DNA of 5,995 nt from a virus (Duplodnaviria > Heunggongvirae > Uroviricota > Caudoviricetes). The position numbers and the translations under genes are program-made. The stretch lies in IMG/VR virus record IMGVR_UViG_2695420739_000005, positions 1 to 5,995 of that record; one strand, written 5' to 3'. Under the pieces are notes generated by a model, which was not told where the DNA came from, did not search any database, and saw only the letters and a program-made list of their open reading frames with translations. Of the stretch, positions 1 through 5,993 are shown in pieces. Every line of letters starts with the position of its first letter. Positions within the stretch are counted from its first letter, which is position 1.

Positions 1-2036
1 CAACGGTTCAGGGTGTCCTGGGTGGCTTTGACCGGGGCAATCAGGTTTTTAAACCACTGCCACGCGGCCTGTAACTTTTCGCCCAGCCAGTCAAACACCG
101 GCTTCAGTGGCGTGAACAGTTCCCCCACCGGCGCAAATGCCGCTTTCAGCCCTTCAACCACACCGCCAAAGAATGCGCTGACAGGCTCCCAGTATTTACG
201 GATAAGCAACGCCCCGGCGACAATGGCGGCCACCACGGCCACAACCGGCCAGCTAATCGCCCCGATGGCGGTTATAACAGCACTGCTAACCGTCGTGAAG
301 ATTGCCCCCATTGCGCCTGCTGCCGCGATAATGGCATTGATGCCGGTGATAACCGGCCAGGCTACAAGACCAATGGCACCGATGATGCCAATAAGCGCCA
401 GCGCGCCACCGACAATGAGGCCGATGGTTGACGCCAGTGATTTGTTTTTCTGGATCCAGCCGTCGAGTTTTAACACATACTTTGTGGCCGTCTGAGTGAG
501 CTTACGCAGTGCGCCTTCCTGCTGGTCAAACAGGTCAGTCCCCACCGCCTCATAAGCGGACTGAAACTCCTTAAAGTCACCGCCGAGGTTATCCTGCATG
601 ATTTTAACTAGCTCTTCCGTTTTACCGTCCGAGGCTTTCAGCGTGGCGGTCAGCGTATCCAGTTTTCCGCTTGCTGCCGCTGCCAGTAAAACGTTCGCTG
701 ATTTCAGGGCTTCCTCACCAAAAATGGTTTTAAGGTATTCCCCCTTCTGAGACGTTCCCAGCTTATGCTTATCAAAGCTGGCCTGAATCTCTTTCAGAAT
801 GGTGAACAACGGACGCATATTTCCCTTTTTGTCCGAGGTTTTAACGCCAAGCTCTTTGAGTGCATCCCATGCTTTTCCAGTCGGTGCCTGTAATCGGGTG
901 ACAACGGCACTGCTACCCGTACCCGCCATTGACCCCCTGATGTTATTGTCATGCAGCACACCGGTCATGGCCGCTGCCTGCTCAAGACTTACACCTGCCG
1001 TCCTCGCAACCGGGCCGAGGTAAGTCAGTGCATCACTGAGTCCCTGAAAATCAGCCGCCGACTTATTCATCGTTGCCGACAACACGTCGCCCACATGGCT
1101 GACATCATCATTTGACAGTTGAAAGGATGCCTTAGTCCCCAGCAACAATTGCGCGTTTTCTTCCATCGACCGCTGGTTTGCCAGTGCCATATTCAGTGTG
1201 ACCGGCGTTGCTGCCTGAATAGCCGCAGCATCTCCACCCGCTTTCGCAATGATAATCTGTGCACCGGCTGCATCATCTGCCGAGGCTGCGGTATTGTCGC
1301 CGAGCTGGCGCGCCTGCTTGCGGAGTGCGGTCATTTCGGCGGAGTCTTTTGCCACTCCGAGCACGGCCTGCAATTCTGAGTTTTTCTGCGCAAACTCATA
1401 ACCGGGCATCAGCAGCTTAACTCCGGCCATCGTTCCCGCCGCCGCAATCCCCACACCGGCAGCGCCCACTGAGGCCATATTTCCGGCCAGTTCCTTGCCT
1501 GCCTGATAACGCTGTTTTACTGCGTTAAGTTTTGCCTGTTGCGCGCTGACACGCGCCAGCGCGTCACGCTGACGGTTAAGCTGTGCGGTGGTTTCACTGA
1601 TACGGTTTTTCAGTCCCTGCTCATCATGTGCAAGATTGCGGGTATTAATTCCCACAACGGCCAGTTCCCGCTGCTGGCGTTTAACGGAATCCGTCAGGCG
1701 GTTATATTTCGCCTGTAAGTCCTCCGCCGCACGCTTTGCGGATTCCAGCACTTTCGCCTGAGCACGTGTCGGACGTTCGGTGTTTTTAAACTGTGTGGCA
1801 AGGGCTTCGGCCTCCTGCCGTGCCTTTTCAAGTGCATGACCAGTCACGGCGAGCTGTGCACTGGTCTTGCGAAATCCCTCAATACGGGATGCCTGACCGT
1901 TCAGCTCGCGCAGTGATTTTTGTGTTTCCCGGATATCCCCCGACAGCGATTTGCTCGCTGTGCGGATGGATTTAAACGGGCGGGATGCCTGGTCAACAGC
2001 CCTGAGCAATACCTGTAATTTTACATTGTTACTCAT
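1..2036 (-). CDS. T: Tail tape measure protein (P2 gpT-like), 5' part only; 3' end runs off the left edge of the window
   Basis: Minus-strand ATG at 2034-2036 opens a frame that I read as MSNNVKLQVLLRAVDQASRPFKSIRTASKSL... and that appears to stay open to position 1; it is absent from the ORF track, consistent with running off the window edge. The translation has long Ala/Gln/Leu-rich coiled-coil-like stretches and Gly/Ala/Ile-rich hydrophobic segments typical of tape measure proteins. It sits directly downstream of E/E' as in P2 (FI-FII-E-E'-T). Plus-strand ORFs 13..495, 799..1023, 1119..1379 and 1793..1975 are antisense to it. Confidence 0.88.
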   Translation of the reverse strand, partial: MSNNVKLQVLLRAVDQASRPFKSIRTASKSLSGDIRETQKSLRELNGQASRIEGFRKTSAQLAVTGHALEKARQEAEALATQFKNTERPTRAQAKVLESAKRAAEDLQAKYNRLTDSVKRQQRELAVVGINTRNLAHDEQGLKNRISETTAQLNRQRDALARVSAQQAKLNAVKQRYQAGKELAGNMASVGAAGVGIAAAGTMAGVKLLMPGYEFAQKNSELQAVLGVAKDSAEMTALRKQARQLGDNTAASADDAAGAQIIIAKAGGDAAAIQAATPVTLNMALANQRSMEENAQLLLGTKASFQLSNDDVSHVGDVLSATMNKSAADFQGLSDALTYLGPVARTAGVSLEQAAAMTGVLHDNNIRGSMAGTGSSAVVTRLQAPTGKAWDALKELGVKTSDKKGNMRPLFTILKEIQASFDKHKLGTSQKGEYLKTIFGEEALKSANVLLAAAASGKLDTLTATLKASDGKTEELVKIMQDNLGGDFKEFQSAYEAVGTDLFDQQEGALRKLTQTATKYVLKLDGWIQKNKSLASTIGLIVGGALALIGIIGAIGLVAWPVITGINAIIAAAGAMGAIFTTVSSAVITAIGAISWPVVAVVAAIVAGALLIRKYWEPVSAFFGGVVEGLKAAFAPVGELFTPLKPVFDWLGEKLQAAWQWFKNLIAPVKATQDTLNR

Positions 2037-2456
2037 TCGTGTTTCCGCTTCGCCGGAGCGCCTTTTCGCGCCATGTGATGAGTTCGGTCAGGCTCATGGG
2101 ATACAGTTCTGATGGCGGCCAGTGAAATATCACTGCCACATCCGCCATCAGGTCATCGACCGAGAGATTTTTCGGAAACGTCACTGCACCGAGTTCGGCG
2201 ACAAAAAACCGACCACCTTACCGGCCAGCGCCACAAGGTCAGGCAGTTCCAGCGCGGCGACCTCCTGCTCGGTCAGCATCGGTGCCGTCATGCGAGGCAG
2301 CACTTTAATCAGTGCATCGACTTCGGAGTTTGCGACCGCAGCCAGACTGACACCGCGCAGCGTCCCCGCACTGGGTTTCATCAGCGTGACCTGTTCGATA
2401 ACCTGCTCACCACGCTTGACCGGATTGTCCAGGGTAATCACATTTTCTTTGTTCAT
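2029..2456 (-). CDS. E+E': gpE+E' fusion made by programmed -1 ribosomal frameshift (predicted 142 aa)
   Basis: Minus-strand slippery heptamer T_TTT_TTG at 2202-2208 lies in E codons 84-85 (F-L). Shifting -1 there opens a 57-codon extension (VAELGAVTFPKNLSVDDLMADVAVIFHWPPSELYPMSLTELITWREKALRRSGNTNE) ending at TAA 2029-2031. That stop overlaps the T start in the string ATGAGTAA. This is the same architecture as P2 E/E' and lambda G/GT. Confidence 0.75.
2181..2456 (-). CDS. E: Tail assembly chaperone gpE (zero-frame product, 91 aa)
   Basis: ORF-track protein MNKENVITLDNPVKRGEQVIEQVTLMKPSAGTLRGVSLAAV...GFLSPNSVQ, recognised as P2 gpE. Position between FII and T matches P2 synteny. Ends 21 codons after a slippery heptamer. 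Confidence 0.9.
   Translation of the reverse strand: MNKENVITLDNPVKRGEQVIEQVTLMKPSAGTLRGVSLAAVANSEVDALIKVLPRMTAPMLTEQEVAALELPDLVALAGKVVGFLSPNSVQ
2202..2208 (-). promoter_or_regulatory. Programmed -1 frameshift slippery site T_TTT_TTG
   Basis: Plus-strand caaaaaa at 2202-2208 is TTTTTTG on the coding (minus) strand, in the X_XXY_YYZ register relative to the E frame. Confidence 0.75.
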
Positions 2457-2484
2457 GGTTTTCTCACTTCTTAATCAGGGTTAA

Positions 2485-2512: not shown

Positions 2513-3031
2513 TCACAGGCCGATATTTCGGCGGTGTTGCTCCAGCCGGTCGACGCCGTTCACCTTCTCAATCATGTTGATGGTGTCGATTTCGACCAGC
2601 TCCTTACCGTCCATCGTCAGCCGGAAATAGGTGCAGATCACGGAGATTTTCGACTCGGTGTCTTCTCCCTGTTTACCCTCGCCGGTGTCGATTTCTTTCT
2701 GACGTCCACGCATGACCACCTCGACGGCCACCGTTTCGCCGGTATCGTCGCGCTGGTAAGAGCCTGCAAAACGAATCGGTACGGCATCCACACCGGTTGC
2801 GGCGTAAAGCTCCCAGATAACCGAATCCGGGAAGCCACCGAGCGACCACTCCATTGACAGCGCATCGTCATCAAGGCCGAGGTCTACCGGTGCGCTGCCA
2901 TTCATCCCCGCACCGCGATAGTTTTCGAGCTTACGGGTCAGTTTTGGTAGCGTGACGGACTTCGCGACGCCCTGATAGCTGTAGCCGTTCAGAAAGACGT
3001 TCATTAACTTGAGTTTGCGCGGCATTGCCAT
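2513..3031 (-). CDS. FII: Contractile tail tube protein (P2 gpFII-like)
   Basis: ORF-track protein MAMPRKLKLMNVFLNGYSYQGVAKSVTLPKLTRKLENYRGAG... (172 aa), recognised as P2 FII. Strong SD (TAAGGAG) 8 nt upstream of the ATG, immediately after the FI stop. Confidence 0.92.
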   Translation of the reverse strand: MAMPRKLKLMNVFLNGYSYQGVAKSVTLPKLTRKLENYRGAGMNGSAPVDLGLDDDALSMEWSLGGFPDSVIWELYAATGVDAVPIRFAGSYQRDDTGETVAVEVVMRGRQKEIDTGEGKQGEDTESKISVICTYFRLTMDGKELVEIDTINMIEKVNGVDRLEQHRRNIGL

Positions 3032-3043
3032 CGGTCAGGCTCC

Positions 3044-4234
3044 TTAATTGCTGTTAACCGAGGTGACCAGATTTGCCAGGTATTTATCGGTAATACGCTG
3101 GCGCAGGGTCAGGTTTTCAAGAGGAGGTACCGGTGTATAGTCGTAGTCGATATACAGTTTTCCGGCCTTGAGGGTTTCCGCATCGTTGGATTCTTCGCTG
3201 AACCAGCAGGTCGCATCCACGATATAACCGTTTGTTTTCAGCTCACGGAATTTGGCATTGATGCCGTCAACGATGTCGCGAATCAGCGTTGCGGTGATGG
3301 GCTTGTCCACCGCCCACATGTGCGCCTCAGCCATCGTGTCGGCCAGCACCTGCGCGGTGCGGGTGTAGTTTTCAAAAAGGAACAGCGGGTCATCAGAGCA
3401 GGTACGGTTACCCCAGAATCGGAAACCGTCGCGGCGAATCAGCGTAGTGACGCCTGACTCGTTAAGCAGGTCAGCATCGGTGCCGGACTCCTGCAAATCC
3501 CAGAATACAGATGCGCTGATGCCGGTAACACCGTTTACCCCGACGTTGGACAGCGTTTTATGCCAGCCCTGCTCCTGGTCGATTTTAGCGCGCAGACCCA
3601 GCGCACGGGCGGTGGCATACGCGGTGGCGGTGGTACTGGCAACCGTATCCCATGCGAGGAAATCCGGCCAGATGACCATCAGCTCACGCTGGCTGAAATT
3701 CTGGCGGTAGGCTTTCACCTCGGAAATGGTCTTACAGCCCCACGCGCTGATATATCCGAAAGCGCGCAGCTTCTGACAGACGGATGCCAGTGCAATAGCC
3801 ACCTCTTTGGTATCCAGTCCCGGCACACCGAGAATACGCGGTTTAACACCGGTTACCGACTCCGCCGCCAGCAGGGCTTTCAGTCCGGTGTACTGACCGT
3901 TTTCGTCAGTGGTGCCGATGATATTGGAAACGGTCTGCGCGAGTTTCGTTTCCTCGTCGTCGCCGGTGCCGTCTTCCACACGCACGACAACGGTGACCGG
4001 TTTTGACTGGTCGGCGATAGCCTGCAACGATGCCGCCAGCGTGCCTTTTTTACCGGCCTTTGCAATTGCGCTTTGCACATTGGTAATCAGCACCGGTTTA
4101 TTGAGGGGGAAGGTTTCCGCATCCGCATCGCTGGCCGTGCAGACCATGCCGACAATGGCAGTGGATACAGTGGAAATGACGCGGGTGCCGTCGTTAATCT
4201 CCAGCACCTGCACGCCGTGATGATAGTCACTCAT
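3044..4234 (-). CDS. FI: Contractile tail sheath protein (P2 gpFI-like)
   Basis: ORF-track protein MSDYHHGVQVLEINDGTRVISTVSTAIVGMVCTASDADAETFPLNKPVLITNVQ... (396 aa), recognised as P2 FI. GGAG about 9 nt upstream of the ATG. Plus-strand ORFs 3447..3710, 3560..4006 and 3909..4220 and minus-strand ORF 3880..4080 are out-of-frame or antisense artefacts. Confidence 0.93.
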   Translation of the reverse strand: MSDYHHGVQVLEINDGTRVISTVSTAIVGMVCTASDADAETFPLNKPVLITNVQSAIAKAGKKGTLAASLQAIADQSKPVTVVVRVEDGTGDDEETKLAQTVSNIIGTTDENGQYTGLKALLAAESVTGVKPRILGVPGLDTKEVAIALASVCQKLRAFGYISAWGCKTISEVKAYRQNFSQRELMVIWPDFLAWDTVASTTATAYATARALGLRAKIDQEQGWHKTLSNVGVNGVTGISASVFWDLQESGTDADLLNESGVTTLIRRDGFRFWGNRTCSDDPLFLFENYTRTAQVLADTMAEAHMWAVDKPITATLIRDIVDGINAKFRELKTNGYIVDATCWFSEESNDAETLKAGKLYIDYDYTPVPPLENLTLRQRITDKYLANLVTSVNSN

Positions 4235-4293: not shown

Positions 4294-4887
4294 CTATTTG
4301 TCCCGGTTGGCTAAGGGATGACACAATTTATTCTTTGCCGCTGATGAGGGGAATTTTTTATAGAGCGTGGACAGGCCAATATCAAAAATCAGCGCCACAC
4401 GTTGACGAGATTCCCCCGCAGCCAGCAACCGTCCGACCTGCTCCCACTCACTCGTGGTGAGTTTCGGTCGTCTGCCACCAATACGACCTTTGGCTCTGGC
4501 CGCTTCCAGTCCGGCGCGTGTCCGCTCGACAATGAGTTCTCGCTCCATTTCAGCCAGGGCACCCATCACATGAAAGAAAAAACGCCCCATCGGCGTGCTG
4601 GTATCAATAGCATCCGTCAGGCTGCGAAAATTAACGCCGCGTTCGCGCAGTTCCTCAACCAGAATGACCAGATGCCGCATACTACGCCCCAGCCTGTCCA
4701 GCTTCCAGACTACCAGAGTGTCACCTGCTGATAATGTTCTGAGCAGCTTTTTCAGTCCCGGTCGGTCGGACTTCGTGCCGCTGATTTTATCCTCAAAAAT
4801 CAGCTCACATCCTGCGCACTCCAGCGCGTTACGCTGCAATTCCGTGTTCTGGTCATTTGTTGATACACGAACATAACCTATATGCAT
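4294..4887 (-). CDS. Site-specific serine DNA invertase (Gin/Hin/Cin/Pin, Din family)
   Basis: 197 aa. N-terminus MHIGYVRVSTNDQNTELQRNAL carries the catalytic-serine motif (YVRVSTxDQ) of resolvase/invertase catalytic domains. Also has the VVWKLDRLGRS and FFHVMGALAEMERELIVERT motifs and a C-terminal HTH region (GRRPKLT...LSTLYKKF). Sits beside an invertible tail-fibre cassette. Confidence 0.9.
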   Translation of the reverse strand: MHIGYVRVSTNDQNTELQRNALECAGCELIFEDKISGTKSDRPGLKKLLRTLSAGDTLVVWKLDRLGRSMRHLVILVEELRERGVNFRSLTDAIDTSTPMGRFFFHVMGALAEMERELIVERTRAGLEAARAKGRIGGRRPKLTTSEWEQVGRLLAAGESRQRVALIFDIGLSTLYKKFPSSAAKNKLCHPLANRDK

Positions 4888-5085: not shown

Positions 5086-5403
5086 ATGAACATCGATACC
5101 AATAAAAAAACTACCACACTGAAATATTTTGTCGAAGCCTATCCAGAGAGAATCACTGCTCAAGCGTGGGAACGCCTGGTCAATGAAATTGGTGATTTAA
5201 AAGAAGTTTATGGATATATCGCCTTTCTGCATGACGATGGGTATCTTACAGGAAAGGTAATCTTTGATGGTTCTCCTGAAAGTATTGATGGATGGAGTGT
5301 AGATACTGACTCTCTAAGGATTACATCACAAGGTTATCATTATTGGAAAAAATCAAACCCTACAACACAAGGGAGTAGCGGAATCCTCAGAAGGAACAGA
5401 TAA
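5086..5403 (+). CDS. Hypothetical protein, 105 aa, unknown function (cargo gene in phage hotspot)
   Basis: ORF MNIDTNKKTTTLKYFVEAYPERITAQAWERLVNEIGDLKEVYGYIAFLHDDGYLTGKVIFDGS...; SD AAGGA at 5074-5078 with a 7 nt spacer to the ATG. It is the only ORF in the AT-rich island, is hydrophilic with no obvious transmembrane segment, and is followed by a strong hairpin at 5411-5440. I cannot assign it to a named family with confidence. Confidence 0.6.
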   Translation: MNIDTNKKTTTLKYFVEAYPERITAQAWERLVNEIGDLKEVYGYIAFLHDDGYLTGKVIFDGSPESIDGWSVDTDSLRITSQGYHYWKKSNPTTQGSSGILRRNR

Positions 5404-5440: not shown

Positions 5441-5529
5441 TAAAATATACCGTGACAATCAGCACTTTCCATTTTTATCTAACAATCAATACTAAAACAT
5501 TCCCTTCTTTCAACATCATATTTAACCGA

Positions 5530-5555
5530 TTCCATAAAACGTTGGTTTGGGAGAA
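5530..5555. other. Invertase crossover site (gix/cix/hix-like, 26 bp, imperfect dyad)
   Basis: TTCCATAAAACG-TT-GGTTTGGGAGAA. It has the AAAC..GGTTT core and TTC...GAA ends characteristic of Din-family crossover sites, and matches about 18 of 26 positions against Mu gixL as I recall it. It sits exactly where the tail-fibre variable reading frame begins. Confidence 0.7.
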
Positions 5556-5993
5556 GGCTCTGCATTACCTGTTGGTGTCCCTGTTCCGTGGCCTTCAGCT
5601 ACGCCGCCAACAGGCTGGCTGAAATGCAATGGCGCTGCCTTTGATAAGGTTAAATATCCCCGTCTTGCTACAGCATATCCATCAGGGAAACTACCTGATC
5701 TCCGCGGTGAGTTTATTCGTGGCTGGGATGATGGGCGCGGCATTGATACAGGGCGTGCTTTATTGAGTATTCAGAGTGATGAAGTCAGAAAGCTCGCATT
5801 AAAATACTGGGGACCAGCTTCAAACAGTTCACCATCAAAAACATTTGCACTCAGCGACAGTGCCGGTGGCGGGTTGTACACGGATGGAATAAGTCAGGCA
5901 AGCGGTGGGATTATCAACGCTTTTCAGCTCCCTGGCGGTAACGAAACCCGCCCACGAAATGTTGCATTTAACTATATCGTGAGGGCTGCATAA
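5547..5993 (+). CDS. Alternative tail-fibre C-terminal variable segment (silent cassette, Hv'/Sv'-like); no independent start
   Basis: The frame is open from 5538, just after an in-frame TAA at 5535-5537 inside the crossover site; the track start at 5547 is a TTG. The translation begins with the ...LPVGVPVPWPSATPPTGW... motif found at the constant/variable junction of Mu S and P2 H-type fibres and ends with NVAFNYIVRAA, the conserved C-terminal signature of these fibres. Orientation is opposite to the other tail genes, as expected for the unexpressed arm of an invertible segment. Confidence 0.8.
   Translation: MGEGSALPVGVPVPWPSATPPTGWLKCNGAAFDKVKYPRLATAYPSGKLPDLRGEFIRGWDDGRGIDTGRALLSIQSDEVRKLALKYWGPASNSSPSKTFALSDSAGGGLYTDGISQASGGIINAFQLPGGNETRPRNVAFNYIVRAA

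Follow-up and report, generated by a model that had tools for sequence, protein, structure and literature searches.

In phage lambda, the major tail (tube) gene and the tape-measure gene are separated by two overlapping open reading frames (ORFs), the first of which undergoes an infrequent -1 slip close to its end that generates a fusion protein at a fixed ratio, neither product being present in the virion (PMC5009743). In phage P2, a shift at the sequence TTTTTTG gives the 91-aa E and the 142-aa E+E' proteins (PMC3091744), both of which are made and are required for tail assembly, according to the findings of Christie et al. (2002) as they are summarized in PMC3091744 and PMC3931495. The E' frame of P2 extends 37 nt back into E, the P2 proteins are reported to have no amino-acid similarity to those of lambda, and relatives from Stenotrophomonas and Xanthomonas carry T7G or T7C instead of the P2 heptamer (PMC3931495).

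The stretch of DNA analysed here (5,995 nt in full, hereafter the window) contains the minus-strand tail operon FI, FII, E, E', T of a P2-like (Peduovirus) prophage, and all feature coordinates refer to the minus strand, which the preliminary description did not specify. The E/E' pair is flanked by FII (tube) and T (tape measure), in the same order as in P2, and the layout is of the lambda G/GT type, with overlapping ORFs and a slippery sequence between the tube and tape-measure genes. The features of the locus, with the basis of each assignment, are as follows.

3044..4234, minus strand: gene FI, tail sheath protein, first gene of the operon (PF04984, PF17482, PF22671)
2513..3031, minus strand: gene FII, tail tube protein, directly upstream of E (PF04985 Phage_tube, E = 2.5e-60)
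2181..2456, minus strand: gene E, zero-frame tail assembly chaperone, 91 aa (ORF list and codon table)
2202..2208, minus strand: slippery heptamer T_TTT_TTG in the X_XXY_YYZ register (codon table)
2181..2217, minus strand: back-extension of the open -1 frame into E, 37 nt (-1 frame stop TAA 2220..2218)
2029..2202, minus strand: E' segment in the -1 frame, 57 sense codons (2202..2032) plus TAA 2031..2029 (translation)
2029..2456, minus strand: fused E+E', 142 aa, join(2456..2202, 2202..2029) (142/142 match to P2 NP_046780.1)
2029..2036, minus strand: ATGAGTAA, T start and E' stop (sequence)
1..2036, minus strand: gene T, tail tape measure protein, partial (PF10145, 1.5e-44; TIGR01760, 1.1e-99)

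Gene E starts at ATG 2456..2454 and stops at TGA 2183..2181, and its zero-frame product matches PF10109 (Phage_TAC_7; E = 1.5e-12, 47.8 bits, cut-off 25), whereas no model in NCBIfam matches E or E+E'. As stated in the preliminary description of this DNA, a canonical T_TTT_TTG is present in E: it occupies positions 2208..2202 in the X_XXY_YYZ register, where it is formed by the third base of codon 83 (GGT), Phe84 (TTT) and Leu85 (TTG) of the 91 codons, and it is the only copy of TTTTTTG in the window. The spacing between heptamer and E stop, which had been given as 21 codons, was expressed in the wrong unit; it amounts to six sense codons (18 nt), or 21 nt when the TGA is counted.

The -1 frame opens after the upstream TAA at 2220..2218, base 2202 is read twice in E+E', and a stretch of 22 nt (2202..2181) is translated in both frames. 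The -1 frame then remains open, as had been proposed, for 57 codons (2202..2032) up to a TAA (2031..2029) that overlaps the beginning of T. The T start codon is ATG 2036..2034, the E' stop falls within T codons 2-3, and the overlap between E' and T is 8 nt. The frame of T is open for 678 codons, up to the edge of the window; by eye, the Shine-Dalgarno match before T appears weak.

Both products of the locus have exact counterparts in P2. An exact sequence look-up found that E is identical to P2 gpE (TAP_BPP2) in 91/91 residues, and comparison of the predicted 142-aa product with P2 gpE+E' (TAPFS_BPP2, UniProt O64312, NP_046780.1), which had been suggested as a check, revealed identity residue for residue (142/142). 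The DNA from E to E' (428 nt) differs from that of P2 at eight positions, all of which are synonymous third positions of E codons in the 5' part, whereas the stretch that begins with the heptamer and runs to the start of T is identical in both. The arrangement of the E, E+E' and T reading frames agrees base for base with the curated P2 and Wphi records, which contain the same join and are annotated with a '-1 translational frameshift'. The junction of E+E' reads ..G83 F84 L85 / V86 A87 E88.. (..GFLVAE..), and the predicted junction peptide is ..VVGFLVAELGAVTFPK... Leu85 is also present in the P2 reference fusion (..GFLVAE..), as expected from tandem slippage. A variant junction with Phe-Phe, ..GFFVAE.., exists in the database as QTN08932.1, and an exact look-up in the protein collection gave no entry for ..GFLFAE...

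Taken together, the sequence makes it very probable that the locus, here in a P2-like prophage, employs the programmed ribosomal frameshift (-1) known from the tail operon of P2 (FI-FII-E-E'-T-U-D), and nothing in the window was found to contradict a frameshift. The exact identity of both products and the conserved heptamer and -1 ORF support the earlier assignment of the site to the P2 tail-chaperone frameshift. Ribosomes would initiate at the ATG of E (2456), and most of them would stop at TGA 2183..2181 to yield the 91-aa gpE. A minority would pause with tRNA-Phe on TTT (2207..2205) and tRNA-Leu on TTG (2204..2202), after which both tRNAs probably slip one base back, in tandem, onto T_TTT_TT. 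Decoding would then restart at GTC (2202..2200) and proceed through 57 codons of the -1 frame, so that the 142-aa gpE+E' would terminate at the TAA within ATGAGTAA, at the T start. By analogy with lambda gpG/gpGT, the E part shared by both proteins may bind the tape measure, and the E' extension may recruit the tube protein. The work on P2 and lambda suggests that the frequency of slippage would set a fixed ratio of E to E+E'; in P2, the 2002 study by Christie and colleagues reportedly puts this frequency at about 10%.

A search for related loci with the E protein gave only relatives that are 99-100% identical, which gauge how common the locus is and not its divergence, and diverged relatives were drawn instead from the phage collection. 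In the resulting 11-sequence alignment, which includes ten other Peduoviridae, TTTTTTG is invariant (columns 1-7) and the -1 ORF is 55-58 codons long in all sequences. The phages that conserve the heptamer come from six host genera: Escherichia, Klebsiella, Salmonella, Erwinia, Yersinia and Burkholderia. Among the 80 IMG/VR loci parsed, which represent 66 distinct DNA versions, the heptamer occurs in every one (80/80) and the same layout in 79. Either ATGAGTAA or ATGAGTGA is present at the E'/T junction in 9 of the 11 relatives and in 79 of the 80 IMG/VR loci.

Whether such an arrangement could arise without function can be judged from the window's own minus-strand genes, in which in-frame X_XXY_YYZ heptamers occur 4 times in 1538 codons, and a -1 frame stop density of 0.062 per codon gives P of about 0.02 for an open run of this length. 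Long open runs do occur by chance, since -1 runs of at least 62 codons are found in 2 of 101 runs in these genes. Nevertheless, it is scarcely conceivable that the heptamer and the open alternative frame are a functionless coincidence: the -1 peptide matches PF06528 (Phage_P2_GpE; E = 1.2e-21, 76.3 bits, cut-off 23) over fusion residues 104-139 and does not differ from E' of P2, both heptamer and ORF persist across the six host genera, and third positions of the E' codons are where substitutions relative to the relatives are commonest. As far as sequence comparison goes, coincidence is already refuted. The possibility that E' is an independent gene, translated by termination-reinitiation from GTG 2184..2182 into a free 51-aa protein, has some basis in that a GTG-started ORF of 51 aa exists at 2184..2029 (-), its GTGA start/stop overlap with E could in principle couple translation, and PGAP/RefSeq calls it as a stand-alone 'GpE family phage tail protein', the exact 51-aa sequence being found on at least 995 contigs as against 1-2 for the fusion. 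These entries, however, are the output of one annotation pipeline and not independent evidence, and they bear out the earlier statement that automated annotation misses the fusion. Furthermore, GTG 2184 is not conserved, the corresponding columns reading TTA in Kp4882-2 and ATA in PSP3 and Midge, and no conserved E' start codon is found across the aligned relatives; codon 19, three codons inside the conserved core, is the first start of the -1 frame in four of them (PSP3, Midge, Milagro and KpST11phi3.1). Conservation extends to the -1 residues that follow the heptamer and precede the GTG (VAE.G), the heptamer does not vary in the alignment, and E' of P2 reportedly has no ribosome binding site (PMC3931495). 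Independent expression of E' therefore seems very unlikely.

The other route to a longer product would be transcriptional slippage, in which RNA polymerase adds one U in the U6 run, so that a subset of the mRNAs encodes E+E' in a single frame. The heptamer does contain a six-T homopolymer, one inserted U would give the same downstream frame, and the Phe-Phe entry QTN08932.1 would fit, although that entry reflects an annotation choice. Efficient transcriptional slippage usually requires runs of approximately 8-9 or longer, which counts against slippage at U6. The final G of the heptamer is invariant even though its -1 codon encodes V, G or D, an argument that is weak because the zero-frame Leu codon places its own constraint on this G. 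The literature on P2 describes the event as translational (PMC3091744; PMC3931495). An origin of the longer product in transcription seems highly improbable, and ribosomal frameshifting remains the preferred explanation.

P2 has been reported to lack a downstream stimulator (PMC3091744), and no canonical downstream stimulator was found after the heptamer in the window either. The 102 nt that follow the heptamer fold with -38.9 kcal/mol (z = -3.09), and the strength of this fold is due to a hairpin at 2151..2109 (-) with an outer stem of 9 bp, which is the sole strong hairpin and lies approximately 50 nt downstream of the slip site. The hairpin displays no covariation in the 11-sequence alignment (the observed values are attained in 200-360 of 500 shuffles), and its stem is disrupted in three phages (ENT90, AP3 and Milagro); it was therefore rejected as a conserved stimulator. 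No Rfam family matches anywhere in the window. The hairpin could modulate either the slip or coupling to T. As for such coupling, translation of T may depend in part on the termination of frameshifted ribosomes, a suggestion drawn from the conserved ATGAGTAA/ATGAGTGA overlap and the apparently weak Shine-Dalgarno match that we consider rather unlikely. If it were true, the slip frequency would set the stoichiometry of the tape measure to E+E' in addition to that of E to E+E'.

The practical value of these results is in annotation, as the free-standing 51-aa 'GpE family' call recurs on about a thousand contigs. The locus is correctly modelled as one E coding sequence and one joined E+E' coding sequence in which the ribosome slips at base 2202. 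Antisense to this region, on the plus strand, are the ORFs 2112..2474 and 2122..2484, which match no family and are not kept open in relatives; they look like shadow ORFs, consistent with their earlier description as artefacts, and should be removed from the annotation.

Compared with known systems, the locus follows the same logic as lambda gpG/gpGT (Levin et al., 1993; Xu, Hendrix and Duda, 2004, 2013, 2014). The tail of lambda is non-contractile, whereas P2 is a myovirus with a sheath. The slippery sequence of lambda is G_GGA_AAG, unlike T_TTT_TTG here. Other Peduoviridae (Wphi, PSP3, Midge, ENT90, vB_YenM_56.17, Klebsiella ST11-OXA245phi3.1, Burkholderia AP3, Milagro, KS5, KS14 and KL3) share T6G near the 3' end of E and a -1 ORF of 55-58 codons (see also PMC3091744), the E' core MAD..(I/V)F.W(P/T)P, and the flanking tube and tape-measure genes. 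They differ in that some have an N-terminally extended E of up to 116 aa, in that 18 to 48 nt separate the heptamer from the E stop, and in that the E' stop of Milagro does not overlap the T start. With P2, the window has in common the heptamer, the 18 nt to the E stop, the 57-codon -1 extension and the ATGAGTAA overlap, and the one difference noted besides the eight synonymous substitutions in E, that P2 carries fun(Z) where the prophage of the window has a DNA invertase, is outside the frameshift feature. The frameshift is real but ordinary and already known; because it has been on record for P2 since 2002 and neither protein differs from its P2 counterpart, its occurrence here adds no new biology.

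The locus is the textbook E/E+E′ frameshift of phage P2 carried by a P2-like prophage and is already known. The preliminary description, which had read it as a programmed -1 frameshift from the tail assembly chaperone gene E into its -1 frame extension E′, was correct, and both products are identical to those of P2. By megablast, the window falls among P2-like phages and prophages (Peduovirus), with pro483, S164, Wphi and P2-type phages at 94-98% identity. Among complete E. coli genomes, 3054 of the 5426 contain window-related sequence. According to the ORF list and the family searches of the window, every gene relevant to E/E′ is carried on the minus strand (the last two entries are the plus-strand ORFs discussed further below):

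4234..3044 (-), FI, tail sheath (PF04984, PF17482)
3031..2513 (-), FII, tail tube (PF04985, 2.5e-60)
2456..2181 (-), E, 91 aa (PF10109 Phage_TAC_7, 1.5e-12)
2036..1 (-), T, tape measure, partial, 678 codons and then the window edge (PF10145, 1.5e-44; TIGR01760, 1.1e-99)
2112..2474 (+), ORF antisense to E and E′
2122..2484 (+), ORF antisense to E and E′

The slippery heptamer T_TTT_TTG is present as claimed, and TTTTTTG occurs only once in the window, at 2208..2202 (-). Because it covers the last base of E codon 83 (GGT) together with codons 84 (TTT) and 85 (TTG), it lies in the X_XXY_YYZ register. Between it and the TGA of E lie 6 sense codons (18 nt); the distance to the E stop, formerly put at 21 codons, is 21 nucleotides through the stop. 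The -1 frame is open from after a TAA at 2220..2218 (-), 37 nt back into E, the same figure as for P2 (PMC3931495). Past the heptamer it remains open for 57 codons, as had been described, and ends with a TAA at 2031..2029 (-). With the T start codon at 2036..2034 (-), start and stop form ATGAGTAA (2036..2029), so that the E′ and T frames do overlap, by 8 nt.

In exact-sequence look-ups, the 91-aa product is P2 'Tail assembly protein E' (TAP_BPP2), and the 142-aa fusion, in which GFL is joined to VAELG, equals P2 'Tail assembly protein E'' (NP_046780.1, UniProt O64312, TAPFS_BPP2) at every residue; the proposed comparison with P2 gpE+E′ thus gives identity throughout. Pfam assigns the peptide of the -1 frame to PF06528 (Phage_P2_GpE, 1.2e-21). 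Over the 428 nt that begin with the E start codon and end with the E′ stop, the DNA departs from P2 at 8 sites; each is the third base of an E codon, and the stretch linking the heptamer to the T start has none of them.

The heptamer and the -1 ORF are shared by ten further Peduoviridae from Escherichia, Klebsiella, Salmonella, Erwinia, Yersinia and Burkholderia, which have 65-99% DNA identity in the E/E′ region. All ten have an in-register TTTTTTG towards the 3′ end of E, followed by a -1 ORF of 55-58 codons, and 9 of the 11 sequences have ATGAGTAA or ATGAGTGA at the junction with T. When the part of E′ past the overlap is compared without gaps, third codon positions of its frame carry more substitutions than first or second ones (for example, 4/3/12 by codon position against Kp4882-2 and 7/5/15 against Midge). 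Among 80 near-identical IMG/VR loci, which comprise 66 distinct DNA versions, 79 keep the 91-aa, 18-nt and 57-codon layout; the remaining one has a premature E′ stop that shortens the -1 frame to 30 codons (ending ...CCAGATGA), and probably reflects prophage decay or an error in assembly. A coincidental T-run and open frame without function is excluded by the PF06528 match, the conservation in relatives and the identity to P2 proteins. Even without homology, chance is a poor explanation: the minus-strand genes of the window contain 4 in-frame X_XXY_YYZ heptamers in 1538 codons, and their -1 frame stop density is 0.062 per codon.

Judged from the sequence and established knowledge of X_XXY_YYZ sites, tRNA-Phe on TTT in the P site and tRNA-Leu on TTG in the A site would both slip one base 5′ onto T_TTT_TT; Leu85 would be incorporated, and base 2202 would be re-read, now as the start of GTC (Val86). 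Such a tandem slip would give the junction ..GFLVAE.., as in the P2 reference protein. If transcription slipped in the U6 run instead, the same frame would be reached with a Phe85 junction, but this is unlikely, because the run is only six long and the P2 literature calls the event translational. By exact-sequence look-up, the Phe85 fusion variant has one entry (QTN08932.1), and a ..GFLFAE.. variant is absent from the collection. Codons K80-V81-V82 contain a Shine-Dalgarno-like AAGGTGG at 2213..2219 (-), with 4 nt between it and the heptamer downstream; in dnaX and prfB, internal elements of this kind modulate frameshifting according to their spacing.

No canonical stimulator is evident 3′ of the heptamer in a 102-nt fold or in the alignment of relatives, which agrees with the reported absence of a downstream structure in P2 (PMC3091744), and Rfam has no match anywhere in the window. 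The 102 nt do fold more strongly than shuffled sequences (z = -3.09) because of a hairpin at 2151..2109 (-), inside E′, which pairs the LMA codons with the PPS codons (CUGAUGGCG ... CGCCAUCAG, inner GUGAUAUUUCAC). As a conserved stimulator this hairpin was rejected: it lies about 50 nt from the slip site, shows no covariation in 11 relatives and has a broken stem in distant ones. It is probably a side effect of coding conservation.

E′ could instead be a stand-alone gene with a GTG start overlapping the E stop, and PGAP does call it from this GTG as a separate 156-nt 'GpE family phage tail protein'. However, the GTG is unconserved, the aligned columns being TTA in Kp4882-2 and ATA in PSP3 and Midge; the first possible E′-frame start in PSP3, Midge, Milagro and KpST11phi3.1 is codon 19, within the conserved core; and the residues between heptamer and GTG (VAE.G) are conserved too. 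Therefore, the heptamer is the only conserved route into E′. P2 E′ also has no ribosome binding site (PMC3931495). Automated annotation does miss the fusion, as had been anticipated: the 51-aa stand-alone E′ is found in at least 995 contigs, the fusion in one or two. In several deposited phage records (ENT90 and three others, L089, L090 and L091), E′ is a short separate ORF of 39-40 aa starting inside the conserved core, and the ENT90 record has antisense 'hypothetical proteins' over E and T; these are the same annotation artefacts. Dismissal of the two plus-strand ORFs as artefacts was likewise reasonable, since a Pfam search finds nothing for either of them, even at E = 1, and their stop-free runs are not maintained in relatives (72, 54 and 49 codons in vB_YenM_56.17). 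All 8 substitutions relative to P2 in 2112..2474, silent in E, alter its amino acids, and the frame of 2122..2484 shares its third positions with E, the usual kind of shadow ORF. Correct annotation is the sole practical consequence of the locus.

Upstream of FI, at the place of P2 fun(Z), lies a 197-aa serine DNA invertase gene (4294..4887 (-); PF00239 Resolvase, PF02796 HTH_7), whose counterpart in the nearest complete E. coli genome is a frameshifted pseudogene. A tail-fibre fragment (5547..5993 (+); Collar domain PF07484, 8.7e-15), encoded on the other strand from the tail operon, has at its start TTCCATAAAACGTTGGTTTGGGAGAA (5525..5550 (+)), which by eye resembles a gix/cix/hix-type crossover site. 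This arrangement suggests that the tail-fibre segment can invert, as Mu G and P1 C do; its partner site would then fall beyond the window. The ORF that separates the invertase gene from this fragment (5086..5403 (+), 105 aa) has no Pfam match; its RefSeq counterpart is a 318-nt 'hypothetical protein' gene (WP_025210643.1), and it may be a cargo gene.

In P2, Christie et al. in 2002 reportedly verified the shift with fusion polypeptides, at roughly 10%, and E′ is said to be essential. A -1 shift at TTTTTTG yields the 91-aa E and the 142-aa E+E′ of that phage (PMC3091744). By analogy with lambda G/GT (summarised in PMC5009743), the two proteins would use their E portion to bind the tape measure, recruitment of the tube protein would fall to E′, and the ratio of E to E+E′ would be fixed by the slip. 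The curated P2 record, which includes a 'site of -1 translational frameshift', places E at 19430..19705, the joined E+E′ at 19430..19857 and T from 19850, and the window has the same geometry as P2 and, likewise, Wphi.
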